Assembly (NCBI GenBank): GCA_964019425.1
Contig: OZ025801.1
Span: forward strand, 310,001 to 374,000
Direction: 5' to 3'
DNA from: Flectonema sp. DT1601
Lineage: Eukaryota
Length of the DNA: 64,000 bases
Shown: positions 19,367 through 64,000 of the stretch, piece after piece
Position numbering within the stretch: the stretch's first letter is position 1
Layout: every line of letters begins with the position of its first letter
Notes under the pieces: model-generated
Database searches by the model: none
Seen by the model: the letters and a program-made list of their open reading frames with translations, nothing else
What the model was told of the DNA's origin: nothing
Position numbers and translations under genes: made by a program

Positions 19367-19700
19367 AAGAAACTCCCAAAAAGATATTATTCAAAACACT
19401 AACTGCCCTTAATGAGATGATGCTATCCTAATCTTTTATTTCTGTTTTAGAACTTTTATTGAACTGTAAACGTTCATTCCACTTTTTCCACACTTGAAAG
19501 GTAGTCAGATAACTGATCTCAGAAGTTTATAACGCAAATGTCTACGACCTTGGGGTTATACTGTTTCCTGAATTCGGATAAAAACCAACATAAACAAAAA
19601 AAAGCTGCTGCCAACCTAGCGTTAATATTTAATGCTCTCCGAGTGCTTTAGTATATCAGGGTAATTGTTTTATCTTTTTTTAATTTTGTTGATTTTTATT

Positions 19701-19731
<31 letters not shown>

Positions 19732-20559
19732 TTAGTTCGATAGTTTAATAAGCTGCGGCGAGGCGGAAAGCTGGAGATTGGTATCCATTAATCTTTCGGT
19801 CGATGCTACTTCAACAATCTATGCTAAATCTTTGGATATGGCTAAGGATTGGGTTTTCTTGTCTGAGCTAAGCTAAGTCTCCTCCTCTGACTTGACTCAG
19901 TGCGACTCAAGACCCGTCCCTTTTGTTTTGATTACGAAAAAAAAAAAAAAAAAGGGAATTTACTTGTTATTTTAATAAAAAATAAATAAAAAGGTGATGA
20001 CATAATACAGTTTATCATTTTTTACCTTATTTATTTATTTATATTCAAACCTTACAAGCTACTTTAAACTAAACAACAATGCAAGTTTTTGTGACGTGTC
20101 CGGATTTTGGGTTCGACGCAGTTTCAGTTACGGCTGGTGTTGATTCCCTTGTGAGAGAAGTATTGACGGCGGCCGCTGGGGAGTGGGATGTCGATCCAGA
20201 GGAAATTGAACTCTCGTTCGCTGGTAACACGCTTTGTGAAAGTGATCGTTTAACAGATCATGGAGTGAGTACAGGCAGCGAGTTAGAGATATGGAAGAAG
20301 AGGTTTCGTATATTTAGTAAATGCTGGTTTGTTGATGATTCAAAACGGGAGAAGCTGCTTCGTTGGCTAAGAGAACACAATGAGGAATACTTATACCTAG
20401 ACACTCCTACATTCACAGGGGATGGTTGTCTCAGTCTTGAGGGTAGTTTACTGTCTTCAGATGCCGAACGGATTTCGTTCCGCAATTTTAATTCCGACAT
20501 CACAGTCTCACCAGTTACTATTGGGGATTGTTTCTTGTCTTCCTGTCCACAAATTACTT

Positions 20560-20632
20560 GGGTAACGAAACTCGGACAGCGCGCCTCCTCGTGGTGTTGC
20601 CTGGATGCACCTTGTGTGTAACTAGAGTGCTG
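20560..20632 (+). ncRNA. HDV-like self-cleaving ribozyme
   Basis: P1 GGGUAAC/GUUGCCU (G1-U wobble), P2 CAGCGC/GUGCUG, P3 GCC/GGU, L3 UCCUCGU, P1.1 CC/GG, P4 UGCAC/GUGUA, J4/2 CUAGA with candidate catalytic C20622. Confidence 0.85.
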
Positions 20633-21249
20633 ACGTATTGTTGTTGCTGTGTATTCTTTTACCCCCGTTTTATTTTCCGGTAGCCTAACCTTTAAAAAAA
20701 AGGACACCATAGCAGAAGGTCAGGTGATCCGGCCCGGGATACTCAGGCACCCAGAGCTCACAGGGGCCACCGGGTTTTTATTTTTTCCTTAGTGGCATGA
20801 TTTCCCTTTACCCCCATTTCCTTCGAACTTCCCCCGTTTAGTCTTTTCACGCATGGGGGGATTATAAGTTCAGGTCGCCTGAAATGTATTAACAGTATCA
20901 GCCCCGCGAGTTACTCGGGGAGCTCCCATGCAATGTGTGGAGAAAGAGGCCATCCCTCCCCCTACCTCTCTGCTTTACTACGTCGTTTTTTGTGTGTGGC
21001 ATTTCTTTTCTTATATTCTTTTCTTTTCAATCTTGTTCCTTCACACGCGGTTGTTCGAGCGGTTGTGAACCACCTTGGGTCTCTTACGGTCTCCAAGCTA
21101 CTGTTGTGCGAAGAAACAAATCTGTTGGTGCGGTGGCCTTCCGACGCCACCTGGACCGCAACTCGTTCACAGTGCCCTACCCGGTTCCCACCGGACCGCC
21201 TGAGCGACGGGATCCATGGGATTCAAAACCCTAAACACTGGTTAATTTT
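20560..21249 (+). mobile_element. 690-bp non-autonomous retroposon (SINE/SIDER-like) with a 20-bp TSD
   Basis: TTCCTGTCCACAAATTACTT is duplicated at 20540-20559 and 21250-21269. No credible ORF. HDV-like fold at the 5' end and a short T-rich 3' end. Confidence 0.85.
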
Positions 21250-21622
21250 TTCCTGTCCACAAATTACTTCTCTTGACCTTTCAAGTTTTAATAGTGTAGC
21301 TACAATTCAGGATTGTTTCTTGTCTTGTTGTTCAAAAATTACTTCTCTTGACCTTTCAGGTCTTAGTAGTGTAACTACAATTGGGGATTGTTTCTTGTCT
21401 TCCTGTCCGCAAATTAATTCTCTTGAGCTTTCGGGTCTTAGTAGTGTTGTCACCATTGGAGATGGCTTCTTATCGTTCTGTTCACAAATTACTTCTCTTG
21501 ACTTTTCGCGTCTTCGTAGTGTTGTCACTATTGGAGATGGCTTCTTATCATTCTGTTCACAAATAACAGCTCTTGACTTTTCGGGTCTAGGTAGTGTAGT
21601 CACTATTGGGGGTAGTTTCTTC

Positions 21623-22009
21623 GTCTGCTGGCTTCGTGCTTACCCAGGCAAGGGGGTAGGAACATTTCAAAACTAAAAGGCATTCAATCGCAGTTATCAA
21701 ACACCTGTTGAGACTGTGTGAGCGAACATGCATCTTCTTCCGAAAAGCACCACAAACTGTAGTGTTGCCAACCCAGATGGAAAGGTGGTCGGCCTTTGCA
21801 ATTCCTTTGAGTGTCTTCCCAAGAGCGTCCGCTTCAAGGATATTTATATGTCGGTCTTCACCAGCAGGCCATGCCGCACCAAGGTACTCCAACTCACCTG
21901 TTTCCCAAACAATGGCACCAAAACATCCCTGCAATGAGGCATCTACAAATCGGCAGTCCTCCCCTCTTTCTGCTCAGGCATTCTCCCCTTCTGCACAGCA
22001 CCGATCCAC
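21623..22009 (-). mobile_element. Inverted RNase H fragment of the YR retrotransposon
   Basis: Reverse complement matches ~28128-28530 and ~29745-30130 (HINILEADALGK). Carries the WVGN variant of copy C. Confidence 0.9.
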
Positions 22010-22020
22010 TCACAATTAGT

Positions 22021-22058
22021 ACCAACGATTCTAAAGCTACAGTTTCTGTACTTTATTG
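22021..22058 (+). other. Spliced-leader (SL) exon sequence fixed in the genome at the 5' end of retrotransposon copy A
   Basis: ACCAACGATTCTAAAGCTACAGTTTCTGTACTTTATTG: euglenozoan SL 3' core CAGTTTCTGTACTTTATTG with a Diplonema-like 5' part (comparison from memory). Joined directly to TTCTCACACCCC. Confidence 0.9.
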
Positions 22059-24138
22059 TTCTCACACCCCTGTCTTCATCACAAGAAAACTTATATTTAA
22101 ATTAAGTTAAAGAATGACTCGTGTAAATTTTGAGTTCCCTGAGTTCTTAATTGAGACTTGGAAGGCGCAGATGGGTGAGGAACCACCAAAGAAGCTCGAT
22201 AATATCAATCTGGACGAGCTGGTTGCAAGCATCCCCTTTAGCATCGACTTAAGTACATTGAGATCCGACAAGGAGACAAGAAGGTTGATCCAAGGCACAC
22301 TGGCCATGTGTCTCGGGATCTCCAATGATGCGGCCAAGACACTTTCAATGAATAAGTGTCTAGTAATACTTGGTGTGTTATCAAGGAGCCGCCTGCAGTT
22401 GGTCAACCAGAGCGCCGCCCGGATGAGCAAGCGGATATCTAAGGGGGGGTCGGGTAGGCTGGTGACGCACGACGAGGCGGAGGATGCGATGGGATCGCTG
22501 CAGCAGAGCACAGACACACTGAGAAGTGATACCAAGCAGGGGTTCGACTCGCTGAGAAACGCAGACGGCGTTTAGCCAGTATCAGAGGGAGAGCCAATCA
22601 GTGAGGAGAAGGGTTGGGGAGGCCACTGAAAAAGCCGAGAACATCGGAGGCATGTGGGAGGCCTTCAGAGAACAACAGACCCAACAACAACAAGCTAGCG
22701 TTACCCAGCAAATCACACAACAGCAGAGAGATCAGCAAAAGCAGAATGCAGAAGTGATCCAGAAAATCTTACAAGAAATAGCAGATCTGAAGACGGCTCA
22801 ACAAGTTCCAGTAGTCGGGGGGGCAGCACAGCAACTACCAGCACCGGGGTCGAACGAAGCGATGACACGGGAGGTGACTGATCCGTCTGCAGGCAGGGAT
22901 GTAACAAAGTGGGCATCCGTTATGAAGTCAGGAAAGGCCGAGGCACTGATCCATGGGATCAGGGAGCGATATGTGAACGGTCTGGAGTACAAGGTTGGTG
23001 GGGGCCAGCTACTTCAGGCAGTTGAAGAACTTCGTTCTCGGTTTGGAGTACGTTGAAGGGTGGGAGGAGAACCCGCACTTTGTGGAGTTGGGGAACGAGC
23101 TGTTGGAGCAACTGCGGATGCAGTATTACTTTTGCAAGGATGGTACGAAGAGATCAGAGTTGGAGATGATCTTAGAAGTTGCATCGGGGGACCCTCTGGA
23201 GAAAGCAAACGCAATAGCGAAGAGAAATAGAAATGCGAAGATGCAACAACCGAAACGGAAAGGGGGGAGATCGTTTGTCTCTACGTATCCATCGTCGGGA
23301 AACGGGAGAGGGTTCGCGAAGTGACCAGCCGACCGGACCCTGCAAGTAACAACAAAACCAACGTTCCTAAAACGAAGGTTAGACACGCAAGTATTGGAAA
23401 CATCCCCATTGCCAAAGTTAAAGTTGAGAAAGCCCGCAAGACTTATGCAGAAGCACTCAAGACAGGTGTTGAGGAGCAGCCGACTAAAAGCAAGGTTAGG
23501 AGGATCTGTAAGTTTAATCGTTCAAGACCCGGGCAACATTGTAAAATCCGCAGTCCGAGGATTCCCCAGCGGAAGGGAGATGAAAATAAGCTCAGTTGGA
23601 ACAGAAGAGATCGCAGATTCAAGGGAAACAATGCCCTCAGAAGGATTAGAAGGAAATGTGGTTGGGAAGATCCTGTTGGACATGATGGAGGGATGCCCAG
23701 AGGGGACGAAGAGGCGGCATGCCGAGGATTCCGTCACATACATGGAGGCGACAGAAAAGCTTCAAGAAACACTGGGGAAGATGTGGGCCTCAAAGACAAC
23801 AGCAAGCAGGCGGAATCTGTGGAGAAGATTTCGGGCCTGGGCAAGGGAAAAGGAGAAACCAGCAAACGCAAGCTCGGCTGTTCTGTTCGTGATGGCGACA
23901 GGTGTGGCAGTGCAAGGGCTTCTCTCTTATGCAAAGAGTCTGTCTGCAGTGATGGGGGCTGTTGAGCTTAGCTGCAGCACTGAGGGCGAACGGGGCGGCA
24001 ATACCGCTGGAACAGGCAACGCCAATGACAAGACCTGGTGGATTGGGCAAGGGGGCAAGACTTAAAGACCCACTTGGCAATGCTAGTGTGCTGGAAGACT
24101 GCATCAAGATGGGGCGAGACCGCAGCGCTCTCAAGGGA
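22059..24138 (+). mobile_element. YR retrotransposon copy A: SL-headed, frameshifted gag, 3'-truncated inside YR
   Basis: Homologous to 24349-26532. gag is split into ORFs 22114-22575, 22601-23056 and 22995-23324. Homology ends at TCAAGGGA. Confidence 0.9.
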
Positions 24139-24190
24139 TCAAAATTCCATTTAGGTAATTTGCCACCGAAACTGAGCACCAAACAAAAAC

Positions 24191-24263
24191 CGCCGTCAGC
24201 GGGTTTTGAACCCTCGACCGCCATTCTTGCAGACCGGCGTTCTATCAATTGAGCTATGTAGCC
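24191..24263 (-). promoter_or_regulatory. Degenerate tRNA(Cys, GCA)-like sequence with A box, B box and T5 terminator in the element's 5' leader
   Basis: 73 nt with canonical tRNA spacing: GGCTACA TA GCTC AATTGATA GAAC G CCGGT CTGCAAG AATGG CGGTC GAGGG TTCAAAA CCCGC TGACGGC G, then GTTTTT. Acceptor stem only 4/7 paired. Confidence 0.7.
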
Positions 24264-24329
24264 ACATAATCGACGTTTCTTTTATTTCTATAAGTCAATG
24301 TCTCTATTAGTTTTCTGACGATATCAAAT

Positions 24330-24348
24330 ATTTCTATCCCTTTATCAG
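24330..24348 (+). promoter_or_regulatory. SL trans-splice acceptor of the retrotransposon mRNA (second copy AG at 28994-28995)
   Basis: TTTCTATCCCTTTATCAG|TTCTCACACCCC. Copy A has the SL joined at exactly this position. Confidence 0.88.
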
Positions 24349-24403
24349 TTCTCACACCCCTGTCTTCATCACAAGAAAACTTATATTTAAATTAAGTTAA
24401 ATA

Positions 24404-25666
24404 ATGACTCGTGTAAATTTTGAGTTCCCTGAGTTCCTAGTGGAGATTTGGAAGGCACGAATGGGTGAGGAACCGCCAAAGAAGTTGGATAATATTAATT
24501 TGGATGAGCTGATTGCAAGCATCCCCTTTAGCATCGATTTAAGTACATTGAGATCGGACAAGGAGACGAGGAGGTTGATCCAAGGCACACTGGCTATGTG
24601 TCTTGGGATCTCAAGCGACGCAGCCAAGACACTTTCGATGAATAAGTGTCTAGTAATACTGGGGGTTCTATCAAGGAGCCGCTTGCAGTTGGTCAACCAG
24701 AGCGCCGCCCGGATGAGCGAGCGGATATCCAAGGGGGGGTCGGATAGGTTGGTGACACACGACGAGGCGGAGGATGCGATGGGATCGCTGCAGCAGGGCA
24801 CGGACACGCTCCGAAGCGACACCAAGCAAGGATTCGACTCGTTGAGAAACGAATGTCAGAAGGAATCCCAATCGGTGAGGAGAAGGGTTGGGGAGGCCGC
24901 CGAGAAAGCTGAGAACATCGGGGGCATGTGGGAAGCATTCAAAGAGCAACAGGTTCTACAACAGCAACAACAAGATAACATCATCCAGCAGCTCACACAG
25001 CAACAACAAGATCAGCAGGACCAGAATACTGCATTGTTCCAGAGCATCAGTCAACAACAACAGGTCCATCAGGAACAACAGGCAGCCGTGATACAAGGTA
25101 TCATGCAGGAATTAGCAGGTCTGAAGAAGAGGTCTACCACAACTCAGCAAGGGCCAGTAGCAGTACCTCAAGCACCAAAGACGGAAGAAGAAGAAGCAAC
25201 ACAGGAGGTGACCGACCCATCTGCAGCCAGAGATGTAAAAAGATGGGCAGCAGTAATGAGTTCGGGAAGGACCGAGGCTCTGGTACACGGGATCAGAGAG
25301 AGGTATGTTAACAGCCTCGAATACAAAGTTGGGGGAAGCCAACTTCTCAGTTATTTCAAGCAATTGAAAAACTTTATACTCGGGTTCGAATATGTAGTAG
25401 CGTGGGAAGAAAACCCCCACTTCGTAGAGCTAGGTAACGATTTGTTGGAGCAGCTGCGGATTCAGCATTACTTCTGCAAGGATGGGACGAAGAGATCCGA
25501 GCTGGAGATGATAATGAAAGTGGCATCGGAAGACCCGTTGGAGAAGGCAAACGCCATAGCTAAGAGGAACAAACATGTGAAGCTGCAGCAACCAAAATGG
25601 AAAGGAGGGAAGGCGTCTGTTTCCACATACCCAGCATCGGGAAACGGGAGAGGGTTCGCGAAGTGA
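24404..25666 (+). CDS. Gag-like ORF1 of the YR retrotransposon
   Basis: 420-aa first ORF after the splice acceptor, with a Q-rich coiled-coil. The Gag assignment is positional. Confidence 0.75.
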   Translation: MTRVNFEFPEFLVEIWKARMGEEPPKKLDNINLDELIASIPFSIDLSTLRSDKETRRLIQGTLAMCLGISSDAAKTLSMNKCLVILGVLSRSRLQLVNQSAARMSERISKGGSDRLVTHDEAEDAMGSLQQGTDTLRSDTKQGFDSLRNECQKESQSVRRRVGEAAEKAENIGGMWEAFKEQQVLQQQQQDNIIQQLTQQQQDQQDQNTALFQSISQQQQVHQEQQAAVIQGIMQELAGLKKRSTTTQQGPVAVPQAPKTEEEEATQEVTDPSAARDVKRWAAVMSSGRTEALVHGIRERYVNSLEYKVGGSQLLSYFKQLKNFILGFEYVVAWEENPHFVELGNDLLEQLRIQHYFCKDGTKRSELEMIMKVASEDPLEKANAIAKRNKHVKLQQPKWKGGKASVSTYPASGNGRGFAK

Positions 25667-28600
25667 CCAGCCGACCGGACCCTGCAAGTAACAACAGTAC
25701 TCCCAAGACGAAGGTTAGAGTACAGGAATATGCAAGTATTAGAAACACTCCCATTACCAAGGTTGAAGTATTTAAGGAAACCAGCAAGACTTATGCAGAA
25801 GCGCTCAAAACAGGTATTGAAGGACGGCCGACTACGAACAAGGTTAAGAAGATCCATAAGTTCGATCGTTCGAGGCCCGGACAACAATATAAAATCCGCA
25901 GTCCGAGGATCCCCCAGCGGAAGGGAGATGGAAGCAAATTCAGACAGAGAAACGGGAGAGATAAATTCCACACCAATCACAGTCACAACGGATACAATGC
26001 CCTCAGAAGAATTAGGAAAAAACATAGTTGGAAGAATTCTGCTGAACATGATGGAGGGATGCCCCGAGGGGGCAAAGAAGCGGCATGCGGAGGATTCCGT
26101 TACATACATAGAAGCGACGGAAAGACTTCAAGAAACACTAGAGAAGATGTGGGCCTCAAAGACAACAGCAAGCAGGCGGAATCTGTGGAGAAGATTTCGG
26201 GCCTGGGCAAGGGAAAAGGAGAAACCAGCAAACGCAAGCTCGGCTGTTCTGTTCGTGATGGCGACAGGTGTGGCAGTGCAGGGGCTTCTCTCTTATGCAA
26301 AGAGTCTATCTGCAGTGATGGGGAGAATCGGAATAGAAAACGGACCTCTGTTGAGCTTAGCTGCAGCACTGAGGGCGAACGGAGCGGCAATACCACTAGA
26401 ACAGGCAACGCCAATGACAAGTTTCGACCTGGTGGATTGGGCAAGGGGGCAAGACTTAAAGACCCACTTGGCAATGCTAGTGTGCTGGAAGACTGCATCA
26501 AGATGGGGCGAGACCGCAGCGCTCTCAAGGGACCAGTTCATCTCTGTAAGTCCGTCAGAGATCATTATCGATTGGTTCCGCACGCCGAAGGGAAGGAGGG
26601 CAAACCCTTACTCGCCAAGCAGATGGACGGTGATAAAGGGGAATCACACAGAAGAGATAAAGATCTTGCTGGATGCGATGGGGGAGTTCAAAAAACTACA
26701 CCCGTGGGACACGTCAAAATTAGTGAAAACGTTCCAGCAGGACGGCAGGATGAAAAGATACACCGCCCACTCAATAAAAAGGGGTGCGATAAGTCATCTG
26801 TTGGAAGTTCTGGCATCCGACCAAGAGCAGCAAGGACTCACAGAAGGGCTGATAAGCAGGCTGGCCAAGCATGCAGGAGTGTCGGCTCTTTCGGACACCA
26901 CGCTGAGGTACGGGGGGAACCCAATTGCAATGGCGAGGGCGTTAAAGACAGGGGATGTCACCTGTTTCCTGTAGTTGATAGATCAAAAAATGCGAGCGAA
27001 CGGGATGTGATGCGGAGCGTAGCAGCTCAGTTCACACACAGAACAAAGAGCACGCGCATTCCCATAACGAAGGAGGAGATATCTTCACCACTACATGTGG
27101 CCCCTACACCTAAGATGGATGTTTCAGCTGTGAGGGGGAGGATGCTGCCATCGGTCCTGAAGAGGTTTGATTATGTTTGGGACCTCACCTTCTTTCCTAA
27201 GGATTCTTCTGTCAATGCACGGCTCTCGAGGAGGGCAACTTCGAAGTTGGCAGGGAAACATGCAAGAGAATTGGTTGAGTGTGGTATTGCAGTGCCGAGT
27301 GATTCTGTACCGCTGTCTCGGAATGTACCATTTACAGTGTATGAGGAGAGGGAGACGGGGAACAGACAGCGGTTCATCCTCTGGACAAAAGAGCAGAACG
27401 AACTGATCTCGTCTGGGGGATATGAACCATTCGTTCCACTGCAGCACATTTCTTGTTACCTGGATGCTGTACATTCGGAGGTGGCATCCTGCAGGGACTT
27501 CAAGACTGGATTCTACCAGGTCTGCATACCTGAGGAGTCAACTTCACTCTTCAGTTTCTCTGATTCAGCTGGGAAGGTTTATTCTTTGACTCGACTTCCG
27601 ATGGGTCATGTGTGTGCCCCAGAACTGATGAACACCATCGCTGCAGTAGTTGCTGGTGACCCGCTGTTCGTTAAGAAAGAATTTGCGGAGGAGGAAGTTG
27701 GGATTCACTGGTGGATTGATAACATTAGGTTATTTGGTCCCAAGGAGAAGGTTAAATGCGCAGCTGAGAGGATGGACTCCTTTGCCAGAATGGCAAACAT
27801 CACATGGAAACCAAGTGATACTGTGGATCTCTCTCCGGAGTATGAGTTCTTGGGGGTCACCTTTGATCACCATACAGACAGGGTGAGCTTGGGGACCAAG
27901 ATTGGGAGAAAAATCAAGAACACCAACCTTGATTCATTGACTGCATCGGAGTTGGAGTCCTTAGGAGGTCGCCTGTTGCATGCCAGCTCCATTGTTGGAG
28001 TTCCACCTGGGAAGTACTGGTTTAGCTTGAAGTATCTTCGCAGAGTCACAAATTACCCGAACAAGGGAACCCTACAAGTACAGCAGGTACTAAAATTGCC
28101 CCGTTCAGTAAGGAGGGAATTAGAAATGTGGATCGGTGCTGTGCAGAAGGAGAGAATAATTATGCCTGAGCAGAAAGAGGGGAGGACTGCCGAAGTGTTT
28201 GTAGATGCCTCATTGCAGGGATGGGGAGGTGTCATTGTTTGGAAAACAGGTGAGTTGGAAATTCTTGGTGCGGCATGGCCTGCTGGTGAAGACCGACATA
28301 TAAATATCCTTGAAGCGGACGCTCTTGGGAAGACACTCAAAGGAATTGCAAAGGCCGACCACCTTTCCATCTGGGTTGACAACACTACAGTTTGTGGTGC
28401 TTTTCGGAAGAAGATGTGTGTTCGCTCACACAGTCTCAACAGGTGTTTGATAACTGCGATTGAATGCCTTTTAGTTTTGAAATGTTCCTACTCCCTTGCC
28501 TGGGTAAGCACGAAGCTAAACCCAGCAGACATTCCTTCTCGAGAGGAAGTCTCACACGGAACGAGAGCGAAGGTTGAACAAGCGTTGGGGTGGTTCTTTA

Positions 28601-28704
28601 ACTCGCGTGGTGGTGGTGGTGCCGGTGTCCCGTCGAATCGAAACGGCCCGGTACAACCCCTACGCAGAAGTAATCTGCACCACAGTGTAGATTCTTCTAA
28701 GTGA
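25597..28704 (+). CDS. Reverse transcriptase / RNase H ORF (probably entered by -1 frameshift from gag)
   Basis: RT motifs RDFKTGFYQ, RLPMG, WIDN, EFLG. DIRS-type RNase H motifs VFVDAS..GWG, HINILE, WVDNTT, NPADIPSR. Confidence 0.92.
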   Translation: MERREGVCFHIPSIGKRERVREVTSRPDPASNNSTPKTKVRVQEYASIRNTPITKVEVFKETSKTYAEALKTGIEGRPTTNKVKKIHKFDRSRPGQQYKIRSPRIPQRKGDGSKFRQRNGRDKFHTNHSHNGYNALRRIRKKHSWKNSAEHDGGMPRGGKEAACGGFRYIHRSDGKTSRNTREDVGLKDNSKQAESVEKISGLGKGKGETSKRKLGCSVRDGDRCGSAGASLLCKESICSDGENRNRKRTSVELSCSTEGERSGNTTRTGNANDKFRPGGLGKGARLKDPLGNASVLEDCIKMGRDRSALKGPVHLCKSVRDHYRLVPHAEGKEGKPLLAKQMDGDKGESHRRDKDLAGCDGGVQKTTPVGHVKISENVPAGRQDEKIHRPLNKKGCDKSSVGSSGIRPRAARTHRRADKQAGQACRSVGSFGHHAEVRGEPNCNGEGVKDRGCHLFPVVDRSKNASERDVMRSVAAQFTHRTKSTRIPITKEEISSPLHVAPTPKMDVSAVRGRMLPSVLKRFDYVWDLTFFPKDSSVNARLSRRATSKLAGKHARELVECGIAVPSDSVPLSRNVPFTVYEERETGNRQRFILWTKEQNELISSGGYEPFVPLQHISCYLDAVHSEVASCRDFKTGFYQVCIPEESTSLFSFSDSAGKVYSLTRLPMGHVCAPELMNTIAAVVAGDPLFVKKEFAEEEVGIHWWIDNIRLFGPKEKVKCAAERMDSFARMANITWKPSDTVDLSPEYEFLGVTFDHHTDRVSLGTKIGRKIKNTNLDSLTASELESLGGRLLHASSIVGVPPGKYWFSLKYLRRVTNYPNKGTLQVQQVLKLPRSVRRELEMWIGAVQKERIIMPEQKEGRTAEVFVDASLQGWGGVIVWKTGELEILGAAWPAGEDRHINILEADALGKTLKGIAKADHLSIWVDNTTVCGAFRKKMCVRSHSLNRCLITAIECLLVLKCSYSLAWVSTKLNPADIPSREEVSHGTRAKVEQALGWFFNSRGGGGAGVPSNRNGPVQPLRRSNLHHSVDSSK
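25639..25683 (+). promoter_or_regulatory. Putative -1 programmed ribosomal frameshift signal (G_GGA_AAC + stem-loop)
   Basis: Slippery heptamer correctly phased in gag (TCG GGA AAC). The -1 frame is the RT ORF. 5-nt spacer, then stem AGGGTTCG/CGGACCCT. Identical in copy A (23297-23341). Confidence 0.75.
25730..26974 (+). CDS. Tyrosine recombinase (YR), overlapping the RT ORF and in frame with gag
   Basis: WKTASRWGE (R), PKG (K), YTAHSIKRGA, LAKH and TTLRYG (Y) catalytic pattern. Confidence 0.9.
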   Translation: MQVLETLPLPRLKYLRKPARLMQKRSKQVLKDGRLRTRLRRSISSIVRGPDNNIKSAVRGSPSGREMEANSDRETGEINSTPITVTTDTMPSEELGKNIVGRILLNMMEGCPEGAKKRHAEDSVTYIEATERLQETLEKMWASKTTASRRNLWRRFRAWAREKEKPANASSAVLFVMATGVAVQGLLSYAKSLSAVMGRIGIENGPLLSLAAALRANGAAIPLEQATPMTSFDLVDWARGQDLKTHLAMLVCWKTASRWGETAALSRDQFISVSPSEIIIDWFRTPKGRRANPYSPSRWTVIKGNHTEEIKILLDAMGEFKKLHPWDTSKLVKTFQQDGRMKRYTAHSIKRGAISHLLEVLASDQEQQGLTEGLISRLAKHAGVSALSDTTLRYGGNPIAMARALKTGDVTCFL

Positions 28705-28785
28705 TCTCAGACTTGTTAACTGCATGTTCATTCAATTAAGTATACTTCTCTTTCCCAGGTGCATACAGTATAGGAAGGCTAATTA

Positions 28786-30350
28786 TCAAAATTCCATTTA
28801 GGTAATTTGCCACCGAAACTGAGCACCAAACAAAAACCGCCGTCAGCGGGTTTTGAACCCTCGACCGCCATTCTTGCAGACCGGTGTTCTATCAATTGAG
28901 CTATGTAGCCACATAATCGACGTTTCTTTTATTTCTATAAGTCAATGTCTCTATTAGTTTTCTGACGATATCAAATATTTCTATCCCTTTATCAGTTCTC
29001 ACACCCCTGTCTTCATCACAAGAAAACTTATATTTAAATTAAGTATGAACCATTCGTTCCACTGCAGCACATTTCTTGTTACCTGGATGCTGTGCATTCG
29101 GAGGTGGCATCCTGCAGGGACTTCAAGACTGGATTCTACCAGGTCTGCATACCTGAGGAGTCAACTTCACTCTTCAGTTTCTCTGATTCGGCTGGGAAGG
29201 TTTATTCTTTGACTCGACTTCCGATGGGTCATGTGTGTGCCCCAGAATTGATGAACACCATCGCTGCAGTAGTTGCTGGTGACCCGCTGTTCGTTAAGAA
29301 AGAATTTGCGGAGGAGGAAGTTGGGATTCACTGGTGGATCGATAACATTAGGTTATTTGGTCCCAAGGAGAAGGTTAAATGCGCAGCTGAGAGGATGGAC
29401 TCCTTTGCCAGAATGGCAAACATCACATGGAAACCTGTGGATCTCTCTCCGGAGTATGAGTTCTTGGGGGTCACCTTTGATCACCATACGGACAGGGTGG
29501 GCTTGGGGACCAAGATTGGGAGAAAAATCAAGAACACCAACCTTGATTCATTGACTGCATCGGAGTTGGGATCCTTAGGAGGTCGCCTGTTGCATGCCAG
29601 CTCCATTGTTGGAGTTCCACCTGGGAAGTACTGGTTTAGCTTGAAGTATCTTCGCAGGGTCACAAATTACTTGAACAAGGGGACCCTACAAGTACAGCAG
29701 GTACTAAAATTGCCCCGTCCAGTAAGGAGGGAATTAGAAATGTGGATCGGTGCTGTGCAGAAGGAGAGAATAATTATGCCTGAGCAGAAAGAGGGGAGGA
29801 CTGCCGAAGTGTTTGTAGATGCCTCATTGCAGGGATGGGGAGGTGTCATCGTTTGGAAAACAGGTGAGCTGGAAATTCTTGGTGCGGCATGGCCTGCTGG
29901 TGAAGACCGACATATAAATATCCTTGAAGCGGACGCTCTTGGGAAGACACTCAAAGGAATTGCAAAGGCCGACCACCTTTCCATCTGGGTTGGCAACACT
30001 ACAGTTTGTGGTGCTTTTAGGAAGAAGGTGTGTGTTCGCTCACACAGTCTCAACAGGTGTTTGATAACTGCGATTGAATGCCTTTTAGTTTTGAAATGTT
30101 CCTACCCCCTTGCCTGGGTAAGCACGAAGCTACATTCCTTCTCGAGAGGAAGTCTCACACGGAACGAGAGCGAAAGTTGAACAAGCGTTGGGGTCGTTCT
30201 TTAACTCGCGTGGTGGTGGTGGTGCCGGTGTCCCGTCGAATCGAAACGGCCCGGTACAACCCCTACGCAGAAGTAATCTGCACCACAGTGTAGATTCTTC
30301 CTTGTGATCAGACTTGTTAACTGGTGCATACAGTATAGGAAGGCTAATTA
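28786..30350 (+). mobile_element. YR retrotransposon copy C, internally deleted (~3.0 kb; lacks gag, YR and the RT N-terminus)
   Basis: Leader 28786-29044 is near-identical to 24139-24397 and is joined at a shared T to the 27421-equivalent position. The RNase H D-to-G change (WVGN) and a frameshifting deletion near 30131 suggest it is inactive. Confidence 0.9.
28838..28910 (-). promoter_or_regulatory. Second copy of the tRNA(Cys)-like A/B-box element
   Basis: One substitution relative to 24191-24263. Confidence 0.7.
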
Positions 30351-30381
30351 CCGTCTCCAACAGCTGGAATATTGCTGAGAC

Positions 30382-31150
30382 TTGATAAGTCTCTCGGGCT
30401 TCAGATACATAAGCAATGGTTCATATTTGGAGCCCAGAAAAGGACAACATGCCTGGTTACAGGCCTGGTTCACCTCACTGGCGGAACAAAACCCCGGTAC
30501 CCAGTGGGACATAAAAGAAGAGGGTGGAAGGTTTAAGTCCTTTTTCCTTGCTTTAGGGGCATCGCTGGAGGGTGTAGGTGCATGTCCGGGGGGATTTGGG
30601 GTTGTTGATGGGTGCTTCTTACGAGCACATTGCTTACATTTGTTGCAATGGACCCACTGGGAAGTCAATTCCCTGTGGGTTTCGCCTTGATAGGCAATGA
30701 AGACGCCGAAGGGTGGAAGTACTTCCTTGGGAAGCTGGGGTCGGCGGTGAAGGTTCCGGAGTTTTTGGGCGAGTGCAGAAGTGGCACTATGAGCGACGGC
30801 GTAGTGCGCACGATGCAGAGGGTGATGACGAGATGTGGGGTGGGTGGGGGAGATCGTGGAGACAGCTGCCGTTGAAGCAGCAGTGTTCACTGTTGAACCT
30901 GTGATGCACGAAGGCGAAGTGTTTGAAGGTATGGTATCTTTCTCGGGGCTTGTAGAATCATCTGCAGGGATAATAACAACAAACAGCGAACATTGTACAT
31001 GGACAGAGGCAGGAGTTGGTCAAGCTGGTGGGTAAGAAATGGCTTGCACCTGTTTGCTCCCAGAGCAGACTGCCTTGCCATGTGTTCATACCTGCGCGGC
31101 TATGGCCTGCTCATGTGTATCCAAGAACTTCTTTGTGTCATGCACCGATT
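30382..31150 (+). mobile_element. Degenerate Mutator (MULE) transposase relic
   Basis: Frameshifted pieces GRFKSFFLA...VVDGCFL and TLLTFVAMDPLGSQFPVGFALIGNEDAEGWKYFL...MSDG match the MULE domain. LPCH is a possible SWIM remnant. Confidence 0.7.
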
Positions 31151-31737
31151 GGTGATACCCTTGACATATGCCACTGCAAGATGTCGCATGCATTCTTCAA
31201 AGACATATCCACTAACTTTCTTCTCACGTTTTGCATCAAGTGCAATTCGTGTCGGTGAACAAATACGTTCCCCTGCGGGTTAACTGTTCGATTTTGTACG
31301 TAAAATACAAATGTATTACAAATTACTTGCTCAAACTGAAAAAAATAGAGCGTATTATAAGCTCAGTTTAAAACATGAGAAACTTGCGAAATCAATCACA
31401 TCCTCAACATCTCCCTCCGTACTATTTCCCACGTACTTCACATTACTGACATGTTATTCTGATACGAAAAAAAGAGAGAATGATCGCAAACAAACGAACA
31501 GAACAACAAGTTAATGACCAAAGTCAGCGGCACAAGTGTGAAATTTAAAACATGGTCCGTTATCCTCATCCTGCGAAAAATGTGTAATGAATTTGATTCA
31601 CAAAATAGGTTTCATTGGCGTGATTACGCAATGACAATGGGCAAGCCAAAAAGGCTGCGGCAATTGGACTTAAAACAAATGCTAGGCATACAGCACTTAG
31701 TGAAGTAATTATTACTTTATGAACGACGTCTCTAAAC

Positions 31738-56304: not shown

Positions 56305-59300
56305 CTAGTAGTTTCGTTGTTCAACGTGATTCCAAGTGAAGGGACGTTGGTTACCTACGCGAACTCTAACAGGTGCCACTTCTGCTACGATGCCGTCTTT
56401 CCAATCTTCTGACACGTGATCCCTGACCCGAACCTTTGCGCCAATCTGAAATTTCTCAGGACTCTGCGCATTAGCGTGTTTTACAAAGCCCCACGTGAAA
56501 GCTAATTGTTGACCCAATATCTTTACCATTGGTTTGGTACCAGGTGTTTCTACTACTCCAGGTTTCCATTCTTCTGCAACGTTGTCTCTCACTAGAACAT
56601 CATCACCGACTCTGAAAGGTCTGGCAACTGTTACTTCATCATCACTTCCTGCAGTCTCCTTACGATAATGTTTCCAAGTAAATGAACGATCTGATCCAAC
56701 AGTCTTGACGGTCGGCTTACTTCCTGCAGCGCTCACAACGACTCCTGATTTCCAATCGTCTCTGTCGTTGTCTCGAACTTGAACTTTGTCTCCAACTCGA
56801 TATTGTAATATCGCAGAACTAGTTGACGGTAATTGAGTTCCAGTCACGGGTGGTGTTAGTGTCTCTCTCGGATCTAATTCACAAAAGTTCCAAGTGAATG
56901 ACTTCCCCCCAGCCATGTCAACCATCGGTTTGGCGCCAGCAGTTTTCACACTTCCGTATTTCCATTCTTCAGATGTCTTGTCTCGCACTCGTACTTGATC
57001 TCCGACTTTAAATCCGACAGCAGCAATCTTTTGTTCTTTTTCAATGAAATTCCAAGTTAGTGCTCTGGTCGATCTGTCTATCTTAACGAGAAACTCACCT
57101 CCTCTGATAGTTTCGACAACTCCTCCTCTCCATTCCTGTGATGTTGTGTCCCTGACTCGAACACGTTCTCCGACTTCAAAGTTGTCCTCATCTTTCTTTA
57201 CAAAATTCCAAGTGAAGGCACGTTTCTGGCCATCGACGCGGATCTGTGGTCGGCCGCTGTTGTCAACATTTTCAACTGTTCCCTTCTTCCAGTCGTCTCG
57301 TTCGGAATCTCTGACAGACACACGAGCTCCAATCCCAAACTGTTTATTAATTTTTATAATTAAAGTGTCAATCAAGAAATGATTGATTTGAGAATGGTGT
57401 AAATAACAATACCTGTCGTTGTTGGGCTGCTTTACCAGCTTCCTTCCCACCTGTGATTCCTTTGTTGGTATCTGCTTTCTTCATGTATCCCCAAGTGAAA
57501 GCTTTAGCTGCTCCTGCCATCTTAGCAGTCACAGTACCACCAGCTATTGACTCTACGGTGGCCTTTTTCCATTCTTCTGCTGCGCTGTCTCTGACAAGCA
57601 CGGCATCACCAATCATGAACTGTTTTAGTAATTAAAAATTAAGAGCATCTTCATTTACTGGGATGAGAAGTCGTAAAAACAGTAATAAGAAAGTAACAAA
57701 CCTCCTCATTCGCATTCAGGTGTTCCACCATAGCCCATGAAAGAGCACGATCGCCATTCTCAAGACAGATGAGAGGATTTGATCCAGAGAAGGATTCGAC
57801 AGTTCCTGTTTGATGTTGATGATGATGATAATAATTCTAACTTCAGTACTTTAATTACACATCACGTGAATGCATACCTTTCTTCCAAGGTTCTGAAGAA
57901 TTATCTCGCACACGTACTTTGTCACCGATTGAAAACTTGCTGCTGCTTGTGCTGGCACCTCCAGTGACAGACTCATCCTTTTCGTAGTAGATCCAAGTAA
58001 ACCCCCGAGCCTGACCGTGGATGGTAACAATCGGTTTTTTACTGCTACTCAGATCGGTGACTACTCCACGCTTCCATGGTTCTTTTTCAGAATCTCTTAC
58101 TTTAACAACATCACCTACTGCGTATACAGTACTACTTAGTGAACTTGTTTTTGTTGGGAGTAAACCTGATGACGATGAGGTAGAGATCTTCCTGTTGGAA
58201 GTATTCTTCTCCATCATCTTCCAGGTATAAGCAGTTGATTGTCCTTCTAGTTTTACCTTTACTCGTCCAGCATTAATAGAATCGATAGTACCTGGTCTCC
58301 AATCTTCACTTGTTGAGTCTCGTACTTTAACAGAATCACCAACACTGTAAGAAGTATCTTCTTTAAGAGGTTCCATCTGTGCCCACGTAAAAGCGATCAT
58401 CTGATCATCAACTCTGACTGTGACAGCTTTTCCATTTGCTGCTTCAACTGTTCCTCTTTTCCATTCCTCAGCATCAGAGTCTCTGACTCGAACTCGATCC
58501 CCAACTGTGTACCCACCGTCAGGAATCACAAACTCCCAAGTAAACGCGCGGTGTTGACCATCAACAGTCACTAATGGTTTTTGACCCCCACCAGCTGTAA
58601 CAATTCCCTTCTTCCATTCATCAACAGCGCGGTCTCTAACTTTCACACGGTCACCCATTTTAAATCTTACCGATGATGATGATGATGATGATGAGGTGGC
58701 TGCTAACTTCTCTTCAGGTCTCCGCTCTACGAAGTTCCATGTGAAGGCTCTCGATTGCCCATCAGCTCTAACGAGAACTTTATCATCGCTAATTGATTCA
58801 ATGCTTCCATTCTTCCAATCCTCAACTACAACATCTCTAACTCTAACTTTGTCTCCAACAGAGAACTTCGAATTACGCCCAGTGGCTTCCGATGATGACG
58901 AAGATGAAGATGTAGCAGTTGGAAGTTTTTCAACAAACGTCCACGAGAAGGCACGAACTTGACTGTCAATACGAACCATCGGTTTGTTATCAGTGATTGT
59001 TTGAACAACACCCTTCCTCCATTCTTCTTTCTCAGTATCACGAACTCTTACTCTATCTCCTACAGAGAATTCTGAAGCTGGAGGGTCACTGCTGGGCTCA
59101 ATTATGTGCCAATTACTGACCTGAACACATCCATCAAGTCGGACAGTTACGTGACTTCCGTTTACATTTGCGATTGTTCCCTTCCGCCATTCTTCGCGAG
59201 TGTTGTCTCTCACACGGCATCGATCACCGTTTTGAGGAAAGCTTCCGAAGGACACGTTGATCTTTTCAATAAAGTTCCATGTGAATGCCTGCTGCTGTCC

Positions 59301-61421
59301 TTCAACGCGCACAAGAGTTTTGTTGCCAGACACTGACTCAACAGTTCCCTTTCTCCATTCTGCTGTAGTGGTGTCCCTGACTCGTACCTTGCACCCAACT
59401 GTATAGGAACTCGCTTGATTATCTCTTTCAATATACTCCCAAGTGAAAGAAGCGTCTTGTCCGTCAACTCTTACTTTTGTCTTTCTGTCTGCTGTGGAAA
59501 CGACGGCTCCGTTTCTCCAGTTCTCCCGTTCAGAGTCTCTGACGCGGACTCTGTCGCCTAATTTAAAAACTTCTTTTATTGAATCCTTCGCTGCCTGTTC
59601 TTTAGCTGCGCGTTCCTTCTCTTTCTCCGCCTGCTCTTTGTCTGCTCGGTCTTTTGCAGAACGTTCCCTATCACGTTCTCTCTCTCTCTCTTTGTCTTTT
59701 TCCCATTCCGCCTCCTTTCGTTTTTCCTCCTCCCTGGCTTGTTCTTTGTCAGCAGCTTCCTTCATTGAACGCTCTTTTGCGCGAGCATTTTCTTCACGTT
59801 CCGCGTCTTCCTTGGCAGCCTGTTGTTTTGCAAGAGAAGACTTGCGATCGCGTTCTTCTTCTTCTCGACGACGTTCGTCTCTTTCCTTTTCCCATTGCAG
59901 TCTATCTTCTCGTTCACGTTTTTCCTTTGCGAGTTGCTCTTTTTGAGCTTCTAGTTCCTTCCTCTCAGAAAGATCTTTCTCCGCGAGTCGCTTTTCCTTT
60001 TCAGCAATTTCTTGTTCCTTCTTTTCGAATTCCTCCTTTTCAGCATTCTCTCGCTTATCCTTTTCCACTCTTTCTTCTTCTCTCTTTAGTTCGGCTTTCT
60101 TCCTCGCTTCCCGTTCGGCATCTTCCATGGCGCGTTCCTTTTCAGATTTGTCATCTCTGGGAGATGATTTCTTGTAATCTCTTTCGTCTTTGCTTTTTGC
60201 TTTCGCCTTTTCCTTTTCATCGTCTGAACGAGGTGGTGGTGGTGGTGGCGGTGGTGAACTATCTGAGTGGTATCTATCTCGAGACTTGTGTCGCGAAGAG
60301 TGACGATTTGGTGTTCGACGAGTTGGTGGAGGAGGAGCTCTGCCATGATGCTCAAAACAGTATTGATCAACAGCTGAAAGTATTCTATTAGTGTTGTGAG
60401 TCAGATCCATTATTGAGTTTAATTCTTGACGAAAGAAGTCTTGTTCATCTTCTGGATACGATCCAATCTTACCAAGTCGTGTGTCACCATCAACATAGTC
60501 TTCAACAAGTGTCATTAAAGTAGCAAGTTGAGCTAGTACTTCGTATCGAAGAAACTTCTTAACACTTTCCGATCCACGTGTTGATCTTTTTCTTCGTGGT
60601 TGTATTGACTGCTCACTGATAGAAGATTCAGTGTCGTCAACACGAATTGGTCTTCTCTTTTTCTTTTTCTTAGTTGGGTGTCCAGTTGATAAATTATTAA
60701 TCATACTCATATTATCGATTGTTCCTACTCCATGTCCCCACCGAGTAGCTTCTTCGAGAGCATTTCTGTTGGGCATCGGAATGAATTTTCCAGTGCTGTC
60801 TCTGTAGTACATTGGTTGTGGTGCTGTTTGTAATTGTTGAGAAGTACCAACGACAGCACCAGTTGGCTGCTGTCCTCTGAGGAGTCTTCCTCCAATTGGA
60901 GGACCAGATGACAGAGCTGCAGGTAGTGTTGAGTTTCCTAAACAAGTTAATCTAACGTCAACTGTCATGATTCCAATCTTGTTACCCAACACGTCAGAGA
61001 GAGTGAAGACACCTCTTTTAATACCGCAGCGTAGTTCCTCACCGTGTTCACCAATAACTAACGCGTGAGAACCAATTACTGTTCGATTATTCTCACTAAC
61101 TTCATCAACTAATATAATGTGAAGCGTAAGAGGGAGTGCTGGAGTCAACTCTTCTGGTCGTACTTGAAACAGACAAGACTTTCCAGCTTCAAAACATATT
61201 GAACGAAAACAACCATCACTTGCTTCAGTCCCTCGTCTGTGTCCTTCTCTATTAGCTAAGTCTGGTCTCACGAATAATGTCGGAAATCCCCATAATCTAA
61301 ATGCAATACATGGATTAGTTGTAGTTGATACTCCCACTAACTCTCTCAGACCGTGAACGTACACTTCGAGCCCATAAAGTTTATTACTAGCTGTGTTTCC
61401 AGATCCAACCTGAAGCGCCAT
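56305..61421 (-). CDS. Large protein: MAP10/HPHLAWLY-like N-terminal domain, charged coiled-coil, 17 Tudor/Agenet-like VRVRD-W repeats (3 introns at ~57.3-57.9 kb)
   Basis: PCIAFRLWGFPTLFV...FEAGKSCLF at the N-terminus. Repeats FxVGDRVRVRDxxxEEWKKG...AFTWxFVE continue across the ORF pieces. Confidence 0.8.
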
Positions 61422-64000
61422 ATTATTTCCTCAGGTAACGACCCCACCCCCCTTCTTAGAAAGTGATAATAATTTATTGACCAAATGATGGATAGGTTTT
61501 TAAAAACAGACAACGATTCTTACTTGTATTTTGTAATAATAAGTTGACAAATAAATTGAATCTTCCAAACCACACTCACGATCACAAATTTCTATGAGTT
61601 CTTACGAGTAGAAGAACACAAATCAGTCCACTCAAAAAAACTACCGCACAGCTATGGCTGAGGTGAAAGTTGTTATTCTTACTAACTCATTGCATGCATC
61701 AACAAGTTCTCAGCTGGAGACAATAAAAACAAAACAAAAGTAAAAGTACTCAAACTCACTCCCCTTATACATCAATCTTTATAATTATTTATTTATCCAC
61801 TCCTGCTACCGAGTATCAGTTTAGTGAACTAATAGAACCAACTAAGGGATCTCTATACTGCAGTAGTAGAGATCCTTACAAAAGGTACAGAACATGGCTA
61901 CAGAGCATTCTCTTTAAACAAAGAAAAAAGATACGAAATAATCGATGCGTGTGTTGCGTTACGAATGTGACAGAGCGGCTTTAGTAAAGTAATTGTTTCC
62001 CAAATTTGCCGATAGAAATAAAAAAAGAAAAAGAAAGCCATTCAGATGAACTTGCTATTTCATTGATTGCAGAGAAAACATAACATAATAAATAACAGAA
62101 AAAAATTTTTTTTCCCCCCTGACTTCGTCGGTGCAAAAAAACAAAAATAAGCATCAATACACGTGCCATACCTCTGGAGAAGCAGACGAGAAAAAGAAGT
62201 GCATTGAACGAATAAAAAAAGCAGTTATCCTTATGTCTGTGACGCAAAGTCACCTGCAGAGAACACATGATATTTATTTATTTACGAAACCTAGGAACCA
62301 AAAGCCAGGAAAAGCTCAATAGGGATAACAGTTATATCGCTACCAGCGACCACAAGACTCTCACAGACGATAAGAGACGTAGAATAACCTGGAACAAATG
62401 ACTACCTAAACCCACGCCCACGCGAGCACAGACAGTGTTAAAGACGGCTGATAACTCCAATTTTCGTTAAAAAGAGGGAGAACATGCCACATTAGATCAG
62501 AAAATAAGAAATAAAGTGATAAAAAAAAACTTGAATGGAACTGAGATAAAAATAATAAAATTTAATAAAAAAAGTGGTTCTAGAAATCCAATCGAAATCA
62601 GACTTGCGCTATTTCTTTTTTATTTTTTTTTCTGTTTATAAAACATAATCGGCATTAACGTGAACCAGAAGAGGATCAATCACGGAGATTGTGTTTATAG
62701 CTTCGGCCGGAAGGAATGACTAAAATCAAATGGGAGAGTCTGTTTTGGATCATAACTGCCTGATTAATTGTTAAGTGGAGAAAAAAAAATATGTATTTTA
62801 AACTTTTTTTTAAAAAAAAATACCTTCGAATTGTGATTGAAGCGGCCTACCCACCCGGAAGGTTGGAGTGGCTGCCTATCAATACTGAACAAACGGCGAA
62901 CGGGCTCTCCATTTACTTAGTATCATTAATTTTAGAACAGAAAAGTGAGAATTAGGTAGCAAGTCCAACTATCCACTGAGTACGACGCACCAAAGAGAAC
63001 CAGCAGATCTCCAATACCGCGGTAGTAGTTTGAAGCCATTCCCTGAAAAGGATTATTTTGATAGTTTCAGCACTGGGTATACTAATTTGTAACCACAATG
63101 CATCAACCTTGATAGACTTATCAAAAAAAAAGAAATTGAGAAAATAAAAAACCACCATAGTCAGTAAGTACTATGATAATTAATTGAACAAAATAATTTA
63201 AAAAAAAAAAAAAAAAAAAAGAAAGAAAACAACTTATTTAGTGAAGATTCCATTAGAACCTGCAGCCACCTTCTATGAAATAATAAAAAGAAGGTTTTTA
63301 CCATCTGATTCCAAAGAAATCTATTGAATTGAGGTGAGAGGAAGAAACACAAAACACATTCTTGCAAACTATGTAATAAAGTTTTTTTTTTTTTTGTAAG
63401 TGGGAAAACCGGTCTGACCAATCAGCAGGTTAACTTCATATAAAAAAAGATGATTTTATCGTTTTTAAGACTTCGGATGGTACAAAAACAATGACCTAAA
63501 TTCTCACATGTTTCGGAACCTCCTTCCGCAGTCAAAATAACAAAACAACTTTTTTCGAATAAAATTTTGCTCTTGAAATCAAACGAATTCTCCCTTTTTT
63601 TATTTTCTTTCTTTCTTTCTTTTCCTTTTTCGCACAAGTATTTTTGAGATCAAAAAATATCAACAAACGTTAGAGTAGTCACACTGTGAGAAGAGACGAC
63701 TACCAAGACGCACCTCATTCATGAAACAGGAATGAAGTGCGTCTATCAATTAACGGAATCTACTGACGATCTCAGAAATTATTTTTTGAAAAATTATTAT
63801 TAATCGGGTCTCTTTATCGTTTGTCAACGTGAATGACGTATCCCAACAGAGCACACTCTTCGGGTTTTTTTCTTTCTTTTCTTTTTCTCTAAAATCAAGC
63901 AGATGAACACACAGCTGTGAGCTGGCGTGTACTTAACACAAAAACAGAATTATCAGAATGGTGTCTGACAGGGTAGTTTGAGAGTCCAAAAAGCGTGGTG

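Follow-up and report, generated by a model that had tools for sequence, protein, structure and literature searches.

The tyrosine-recombinase (YR) retrotransposons VIPER and TATE carry a gag-like open reading frame (ORF) followed by a YR ORF that overlaps the one for reverse transcriptase (RT) and RNase H; they have a junction between element end and leader near the 3' end, make no target duplication and are found nested (PMC6681497, PMC12278014). Their replication has so far been inferred by analogy only. Here we describe an element sharing all these features in 64,000 nucleotides (nt) of DNA from Flectonema sp. DT1601 (contig OZ025801.1, positions 310,001 to 374,000 of the forward strand; this whole stretch is called the window, and positions below refer to it), where an old copy starts with a spliced leader (SL) and is likely the reverse-transcribed form of an SL-spliced element RNA. 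The term 'spliced leader' has 0 occurrences in the available text of PMC6681497, which describes no SL-defined 5' end, and the available parts of PMC4006747, PMC7049700, PMC3783388 and PMC9210276 hold nothing on trans-splicing of VIPER/TATE-type elements. In the literature searched we found no report of a mapped 5' end of VIPER or TATE RNA. Likewise, no report of an SL-headed recombinase retrotransposon was found for VIPER/TATE, diplonemid or kinetoplastid retroelements, most subscription papers (e.g. Lorenzi 2006, Vazquez 1994/2000) lying outside the search, whereas SL-tagged retrocopies as such have already been published for dinoflagellates. The fossil would name a single base, inside the terminal repeat, as the 5' end of an RNA copied by RT, and it makes a model of replication testable. 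Its weight is limited, as it is one dead copy and SL-tagged retrocopies are known elsewhere.

Four further systems invite comparison. The SL-tagged retrogenes of dinoflagellates are genomic copies that, like the one in the window, have the trans-spliced leader at their start, joined at the splice site, in place of the upstream leader (Song et al. 2017, PMC5585692; PMC3942190). The window copy differs from them by its 39-nt euglenozoan type of SL, by deriving from a YR retrotransposon's own RNA, by the absence of poly(A), by a fold-back piece and by an apparently recombinase-made right end. DIRS-1 of Dictyostelium is transcribed into a sub-genomic RNA without most of the left repeat, an internal copy of the junction, which transposition needs, restores the ends, incomplete cDNAs without the left repeat accumulate, and insertion into older copies has been noted (PMC7192593), as it also has for TATE. 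Unlike the window element, DIRS-1 has inverted repeats, an internal complementary region and a 5' end set by a promoter rather than by trans-splicing. The long interspersed nuclear elements (LINEs) L1Tc/ingi of trypanosomes face the same problem of keeping a 5' end in a trans-splicing, polycistronic host and rely on unspliced RNA, an internal promoter and a ribozyme (PMC3185411), whereas the window element has a splice acceptor before gag; if our reading is true, it would be a second solution to the problem beside the promoter-ribozyme of L1Tc. Finally, SL sequence also adjoins the retroelements CRE, SLACS and CZAR, which have a restriction-like endonuclease and insert into SL RNA genes (PMC12278014), whereas in the window the exon stands alone and at an acceptor.

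The presumed leader is a 38-mer at 22021-22058 of the plus strand, followed from 22059 by TTCTCACACCCC, just as the original prediction had it for the first copy. In a scan of metagenome contigs, 45 exact matches to the 38-mer were found across 43 loci. An A precedes all 45 of them and a T precedes the window copy, hence the SL exon is taken to be 39 nt long and the window copy to be without base 1. Directly 3' of the 38-mer stands GT in 31 of the 45 matches, most of these sharing their intron start, and 13 of the 20 GT-type loci scanned (out of 29) contain U small nuclear RNA, 5S, 7SL, tRNA or rRNA genes. A 39-nt exon, then GT, in a small-RNA gene context is what a euglenozoan SL gene would look like, and by way of these matches, rather than of a host SL gene, 22021-22058 is identified as bases 2-39 of a euglenozoan SL exon. 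The SL exon of Diplonema papillatum is 39 bp long and lies in a repeat with 5S and U2 genes (PMC10161547). A diplonemid SL sequence was not found in published text, including seven supplement files of that paper searched as text (other supplement parts may show it), and a scan with Rfam gave no SL family match. With up to 3 mismatches allowed, the 3' 20-mer of the SL occurs once in the window, against a mean of 0.02 by chance (100 shuffles), and neither an SL exon-intron boundary of the metagenome type nor an SL-gene flank is present there. As an aside, the SL-gene-like copies L002, L007, L012, L014, L020, L024, L029, L034 and L040 lie in dense clusters of tRNA, U1/U4/U5/U6, 7SL and 5S genes, unlike the SL-5S-U2 repeat of D. 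papillatum.

The sequence directly after the SL recurs twice in the window, behind 18-nt pyrimidine tracts with AG that end at 24348 and 28995, each followed immediately by TTCTCACACCCC, which bears out what had been noted earlier for two further copies. The first tract (24331-24348, plus strand) lies 55 nt ahead of the gag ATG and is taken to be the trans-splice acceptor; the second lies inside a repeat called A2 below and is identical to it. AGs with at least 18 pyrimidines among the preceding 25 nt number 5 of 415 in the young element, the one at 24348 among them. In the old copy, the end of the exon meets the element precisely at the position of its AG, with the SL in place of the upstream leader, as in an SL-tagged retrocopy. 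Essentially all Diplonema mRNAs bear an SL, and the acceptor suggests that the host very probably adds one to the element RNA 55 nt before gag as well, removing a leader of 211 nt. Because the SL exon is present, the joint coincides exactly with exon end and acceptor, and no SL-gene intron is found in the window, it is likely that an RNA was trans-spliced and then reverse transcribed as far as the cap end, and likewise that the head at 22021-22058 is a retrocopy of SL-spliced element RNA. To that extent the original prediction, which held that an SL-trans-spliced mRNA had been reverse transcribed to its cap and integrated, is likely right.

The element itself is, by its predicted proteins and their order, a VIPER-like YR retrotransposon of VIPER/TATE layout. 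A gag-like ORF of 420 amino acids (aa) at 24404..25666 (plus strand), 98.6-99.8% identical to other full-length members of its cluster, is first by position, of fitting size and coiled-coil-like; it gave no Pfam match under E 0.01, and no CH-box as in VIPER/TATE was seen in it. The gag-like ORF of the published elements is likewise defined by position (PMC6681497). The YR ORF (25667..26974, plus strand) encodes 325 aa from the Met at 25997, close to the approximately 338 aa of the VIPER YR (PMC6681497), and lies within the RT ORF in another frame. Its structural model (pLDDT 90) matches Cre/Tre with a Cre-like fold (Foldseek E 1e-6), the residues R169, K198, H258, R262, H292 and Y305 are invariant or nearly so in an alignment of 50 sequences, and it is 28% identical to the YR of Trypanosoma cruzi Dm28c over 264 aa; kinetoplastid YR matches with names were only those of T. 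cruzi (P0132) and Novymonas (P0098). The RT/RNase H ORF (25564..28704, plus strand) is open for 1046 codons and overlaps the YR ORF, with YR first. Its Pfam match to RVT_1 is weak (E 3e-4, below cut-off), and its profile matches solved RT/RNase H structures, including the RNase H of Ty3 and a caulimovirus-type polyprotein, with E down to 3e-9. The nearest relatives with names are D. papillatum proteins (37-52%), which makes a diplonemid the probable host; TATE-like ORFs are mentioned for D. papillatum (PMC10161547). The family is multicopy with 20 plus 3 RT proteins, 9 gags of the young type and 11 of the old type, some of the latter intact. No target-site duplication is seen, only one shared A per end, a weak test since the flanks differ. 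Related elements were not found in viral contigs; those with DNA were two in prokaryote genome bins, probably mis-binned. One of these, L056 (1-5944), is a VIPER-like element with the same ORF layout in a freshwater bacterial bin, probably eukaryote DNA; a pyrimidine-rich tract with AG stands shortly before its gag, and its sequence stops 16 nt past the RT stop, so its repeats are unreadable.

The locus contains pieces of different age. Self-comparison defines the young element, whose left end is a repeat, A1 (24138..24397, plus strand), made of the 211-nt leader (24138-24348, including one A shared with the flank) and 49 nt past the acceptor. A second repeat, A2 (28785..29044, plus strand), 259/260 identical to A1, is joined directly to the element's right end at 28784/28785, so that the right end runs into a second leader with acceptor and 49 nt, as in the published A1..B1-A2 layout of VIPER and TATE. 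Among sequencing runs, one was listed for the sequence, X1 (share 0.09), and none of RNA, which says nothing about expression. Across 19500-31500, run X1 gave 22 low-depth contigs (8 of 25 pieces and 6 of 23 loose ends were inspected); one contig has its first base exactly at 24138 and another breaks off at 28787, fitting these ends at that low depth. Upstream lies copy A (22059..24137, plus strand), the old 5' half of a second subfamily with gag and the start of the YR and RT ORFs; it has 4 frameshifts and ends inside its YR ORF. Before its SL come an 11-nt filler (22010..22020) and an inverted duplicate of the RT/RNase H region (21623..22009, minus strand, equivalent to 28128-28530, with 3 deletions). 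The filler is of uncertain origin; it is two edits from an in-phase unit of the leucine-rich-repeat (LRR) gene on its left, weak support given 74 matches of up to two edits on both strands of the window. Downstream of A2 follows a decayed 3' part (29044..30350, plus strand, equivalent to 27421-28785) with 24 substitutions and 4 deletions. The earlier picture of three element copies needs revision, as the third is probably the young leader fused to an old 3' end rather than a plain copy.

We propose that the inverted piece, the SL, copy A and 29044-30350 were probably one old insertion, which was cut by the young copy and later by a deletion. This reading rests on common decay, on the shared D939G and S977P alleles and on the last residue of RT. 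Deletions and frameshifts number 4 in copy A, 3 in the inverted piece and 4 in 29044-30350, against 0 in the young ORFs (p 2e-4); outside its breaks, copy A is 97-99% identical to intact relatives. The 3' part shows 7 derived amino-acid changes in addition to its 4 deletions, versus 2 changes in B1, the corresponding region of the young copy (p 0.02). It shares with the inverted piece the RNase H change D939G (Asp to Gly), found in 0 of the 11 other family proteins that extend over this position. RT ends in L in 29044-30350, as it does in all 3 full proteins with an N-terminus of the copy A type, and in K in the young copy and in P0153. Several observations weigh against a single old insertion. 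The second shared minor allele, S977P, also occurs in 2 of the 11 other proteins. The last-residue marker is imperfect, as P0144 (L) goes with a young-type and P0143 (K) with an old-type gag, the contigs being paired by length. The flanks differ, with LRR on the left and a MULE fragment on the right, which requires an extra deletion or rearrangement, and in a sister family two overlapping C-terminal RT proteins on one 410-kb contig fit a long natural B2.

The two ends of the proposed old insertion are unlike each other. Its 3' part ends on the very base at which the young copy has its end-to-leader junction, with one shared A and no poly(A), and ACC follows the crossover in both the target of the young copy and the old right flank (chance 1 in 16). 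By its position, the right end at 30350 thus resembles one made by a recombinase, while the SL end looks ragged.

The explanation that we consider best overall, and hold with moderate confidence, is that the locus preserves the 5' end of an SL-spliced mRNA that was reverse transcribed to the cap, likely without the template jump that would rebuild the end. Observation supplies the starting point, namely the element type, the identity of the SL and the exact joint. Splicing of the element RNA by the host at the acceptor, with loss of the leader, would come second and is as probable as stated above. Normally, RT would then jump within the at least 49 nt after the acceptor, which both A repeats hold, to the internal junction and recopy the leader, a step whose chances we regard as evenly poised and which requires an RNA uncut at the second acceptor. 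Because A2 contains the complete leader with its acceptor and continues for 49 nt or more, the element could be rebuilt from an RNA with splicing at A1 and none at A2. This qualifies the original prediction that full-length transposition must use a different RNA: reading through the end-to-leader junction and the second acceptor would indeed be needed, but a template unspliced at its 5' end need not be, as A2 could restore the leader. In the fossil, there is a reasonable case that RT ran as far as the cap, left out a single base and then took its own first strand as template, from which the inverted piece arose. RT is known from trypanosome work to halt at the methylated first cap base. A fully processed mRNA, with the SL at the first acceptor and poly(A) before the second, would hold the end-to-leader junction without the jump stretch and would yield just the product observed. 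The recombinase may or may not, with little to tilt the scales, have made the precise right end at 30350 while end-joining healed the SL end into the LRR gene. Thereafter the younger copy probably inserted into the old one and a deletion took its right end together with about 0.9 kb of the old copy.

Several points speak against this scheme. The evidence comes from a single locus, the fold-back joint shows no microhomology, and no molecule spanning the SL joint was seen, nor the joint reported, among the low-depth pieces of run X1 that were inspected. In addition, the two acceptors are identical and use of the second would be expected as well, and in trypanosomes splicing is coupled to upstream polyadenylation, which would strip the jump site from most RNAs. 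SIRE of T. cruzi reportedly supplies trans-splice acceptors to host genes (Vazquez et al. 1994), which would match an acceptor inside the A repeat; no paper stating so was found in the literature searched. SIRE corresponds to A2+B2 of VIPER (PMC6681497). A repeat-annealing model has been proposed for split-repeat elements (PMC6681497, section 12). We tentatively suggest that VIPER-like elements could be promoterless passengers of polycistronic transcription. SL splicing would set their 5' end inside repeat A, about 50 nt behind it would serve as an R-like jump site, and the internal junction would rebuild the leader in each cycle; using or skipping the second acceptor would decide between an mRNA for translation only and a template for transposition. 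The present locus would then be a failed product, with the SL on the left, a fold-back from the cap and a recombinase-made right end.

Of the other explanations, the one that survives best is the earlier model, in which SL-spliced RNA is a dead end that serves translation only and full-length copies arise from unspliced or tandem read-through RNA. We regard it as possible, if on balance doubtful. It accords with the loss of the left end and the tRNA-like box through splicing, with the fact that the sole SL-headed copy seen is dead, and with L1Tc of T. cruzi, which uses unspliced RNA and a ribozyme-made 5' end (PMC3185411). However, the fossil shows that some RT did copy SL-spliced element RNA, the leader is available from the internal junction, and DIRS-1 transposes from a transcript without most of its left repeat (PMC7192593).

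It is less likely that a LINE-type enzyme, rather than the element's own RT, acted in trans on the SL-spliced mRNA and retroposed it in the manner of a processed pseudogene. D. papillatum has many LINE, SLACS and R2-like ORFs, and SL-tagged retrogenes are common in dinoflagellates (PMC5585692). Against this origin stands the lack of poly(A) and of a target duplication, the longest match between left and right being 7 nt and away from the joints, an argument valid if 30350 is the 3' end of the copy; moreover, the old 3' part stops at the recombinase crossover. 5' inversions are typical of LINE products. Twin priming, however, does not produce a duplicate of downstream sequence such as the inverted piece, and it was rejected as the source of that piece.

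Somewhat more unlikely still is the possibility that 24138-30350 is one intact split-repeat element with an A repeat of 260 nt and a B repeat of 1365 nt, with 29044-30350 as its natural B2, and that it inserted into the SL-headed copy, an independent and truncated retrocopy. VIPER, TATE and Ngaro have precisely the order A1..B1-A2-B2, the substitutions between A1 and A2 (1/260) and between B1 and B2 (24/1307) do not differ significantly (Fisher p 0.10), and the two overlapping proteins on the sister-family contig would fit. Published B repeats, however, measure only 57-308 nt, and while B1 and B2 should be nearly identical on insertion under the published model, the excess of changes in B2 over B1 described above (7 changes and 4 deletions versus 2; p 0.02) points the other way. 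A second C-terminal RT protein was found on 0 of 6 contigs with a long RT among the members listed (15/20, 3/3, 2/2), with contigs paired by length only, and a contig of run X1 crosses 24397 unbroken, weak evidence at a depth of about 2.5. In short, split repeats with an A1/A2 identity of 259/260 and a B-A junction are present, a clean short B2 as in VIPER/TATE is not, and the 1.3-kb, decayed 'B2' may belong to an older copy.

An artefact, be it cDNA contamination, an amplification chimera or a misassembly that placed SL and inverted piece here, is improbable. An inversion beside a joint is typical of amplification chimeras, and the pieces of run X1 inspected gave no read support. The locus, however, lies within a contig of 421,321 nt, copy A has four frameshifts and is cut at the exact element end, and the inverted piece bears lesions of its own and is therefore no fresh copy of other window sequence. 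Capture at the DNA level, by insertion into or recombination with an SL RNA gene such as CRE-clade elements target (PMC12278014), is largely refuted, as the window has no SL intron or SL-gene flank, the element has a recombinase ORF, and the joint coincides with the end of the exon as well as with the acceptor.

The leader that splicing would remove also holds a tRNA-like sequence. It was found by pattern search on the minus strand at 24191..24277 and again in A2 at 28838-28924; it shows A-box/B-box spacing, a T run follows, and within the window this pattern is confined to the two leaders. ARAGORN reports it when the threshold is lowered to 80-85% and not at default, its fold is weak (z = -0.87) and Rfam gave a sub-threshold tmRNA match only. 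A functional tRNA was rejected on account of the ARAGORN result and the weak fold; the antisense tRNA-like sequence in each A repeat may be an RNA polymerase III element, a boundary or a primer site. The earlier claim that splicing would delete a leader of 210 nt with the left end and this box holds for the leader, at 211 nt, and needs amending for the box, which is real but degenerate.

The metagenome matches that lack GT are of another kind. The same 39-nt leader is DNA-encoded before short untranslated regions and ORFs in all 14 of these (L004, L005, L009, L010, L016, L017, L021, L022, L023, L030, L033, L039, L041, L042) and 4 times on one IMG/VR contig of 237,777 nt, which carries at least 6 leader copies, 4 exact and 2 worn (IMG/VR leader loci: L044-L047, L050, L051). 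The motif AAAA(A/T)TGA, which we take to resemble the early promoter of mimivirus, stands 18-19 nt upstream of the leader in 18 of 18 non-GT exact matches versus 0 of 30 of the GT type (one was dropped, its flank being too short); it is absent from the window SL. One gene adjoining the viral copies encodes a VLTF3-like late transcription factor, and a leader-headed gene nearby looks, from one motif, like a capping enzyme, with only a weak methyltransferase match in Pfam. These observations point to giant viruses that live on diplonemid-like hosts and carry the host leader in their own DNA. In the titles and abstract beginnings searched, no paper on a leader encoded by giant viruses was found. 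On another viral contig, of 110 kb (L054), stands a further leader variant of euglenozoan type; it has the 3' core in common and lacks the exact upstream motif.

The surroundings of the locus are as follows. On the left, the LRR gene consists of 75-nt units of the BspA type (21239..21621, plus strand; LRR_5, E 3e-10) and is broken in the sixth unit. On the right, a MULE transposase fragment (30609..30860, plus strand; E 1.4e-4, below the curated cut-off) continues neither copy A nor the LRR gene. The two element subfamilies (22059-24137 versus 24349-26535) share 76-92% identity as far as about 26150 and 98% beyond it, a step that suggests recombination swapping the gag half. The element cluster (approximately 21000-31700) is found where plus-strand long ORFs give way to minus-strand ones, much like a convergent strand-switch region. 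Further along, at 56305-61430 of the minus strand, the window contains large ORFs in which short SH3-like repeats are numerous and the N-terminal domain is MAP10-like.

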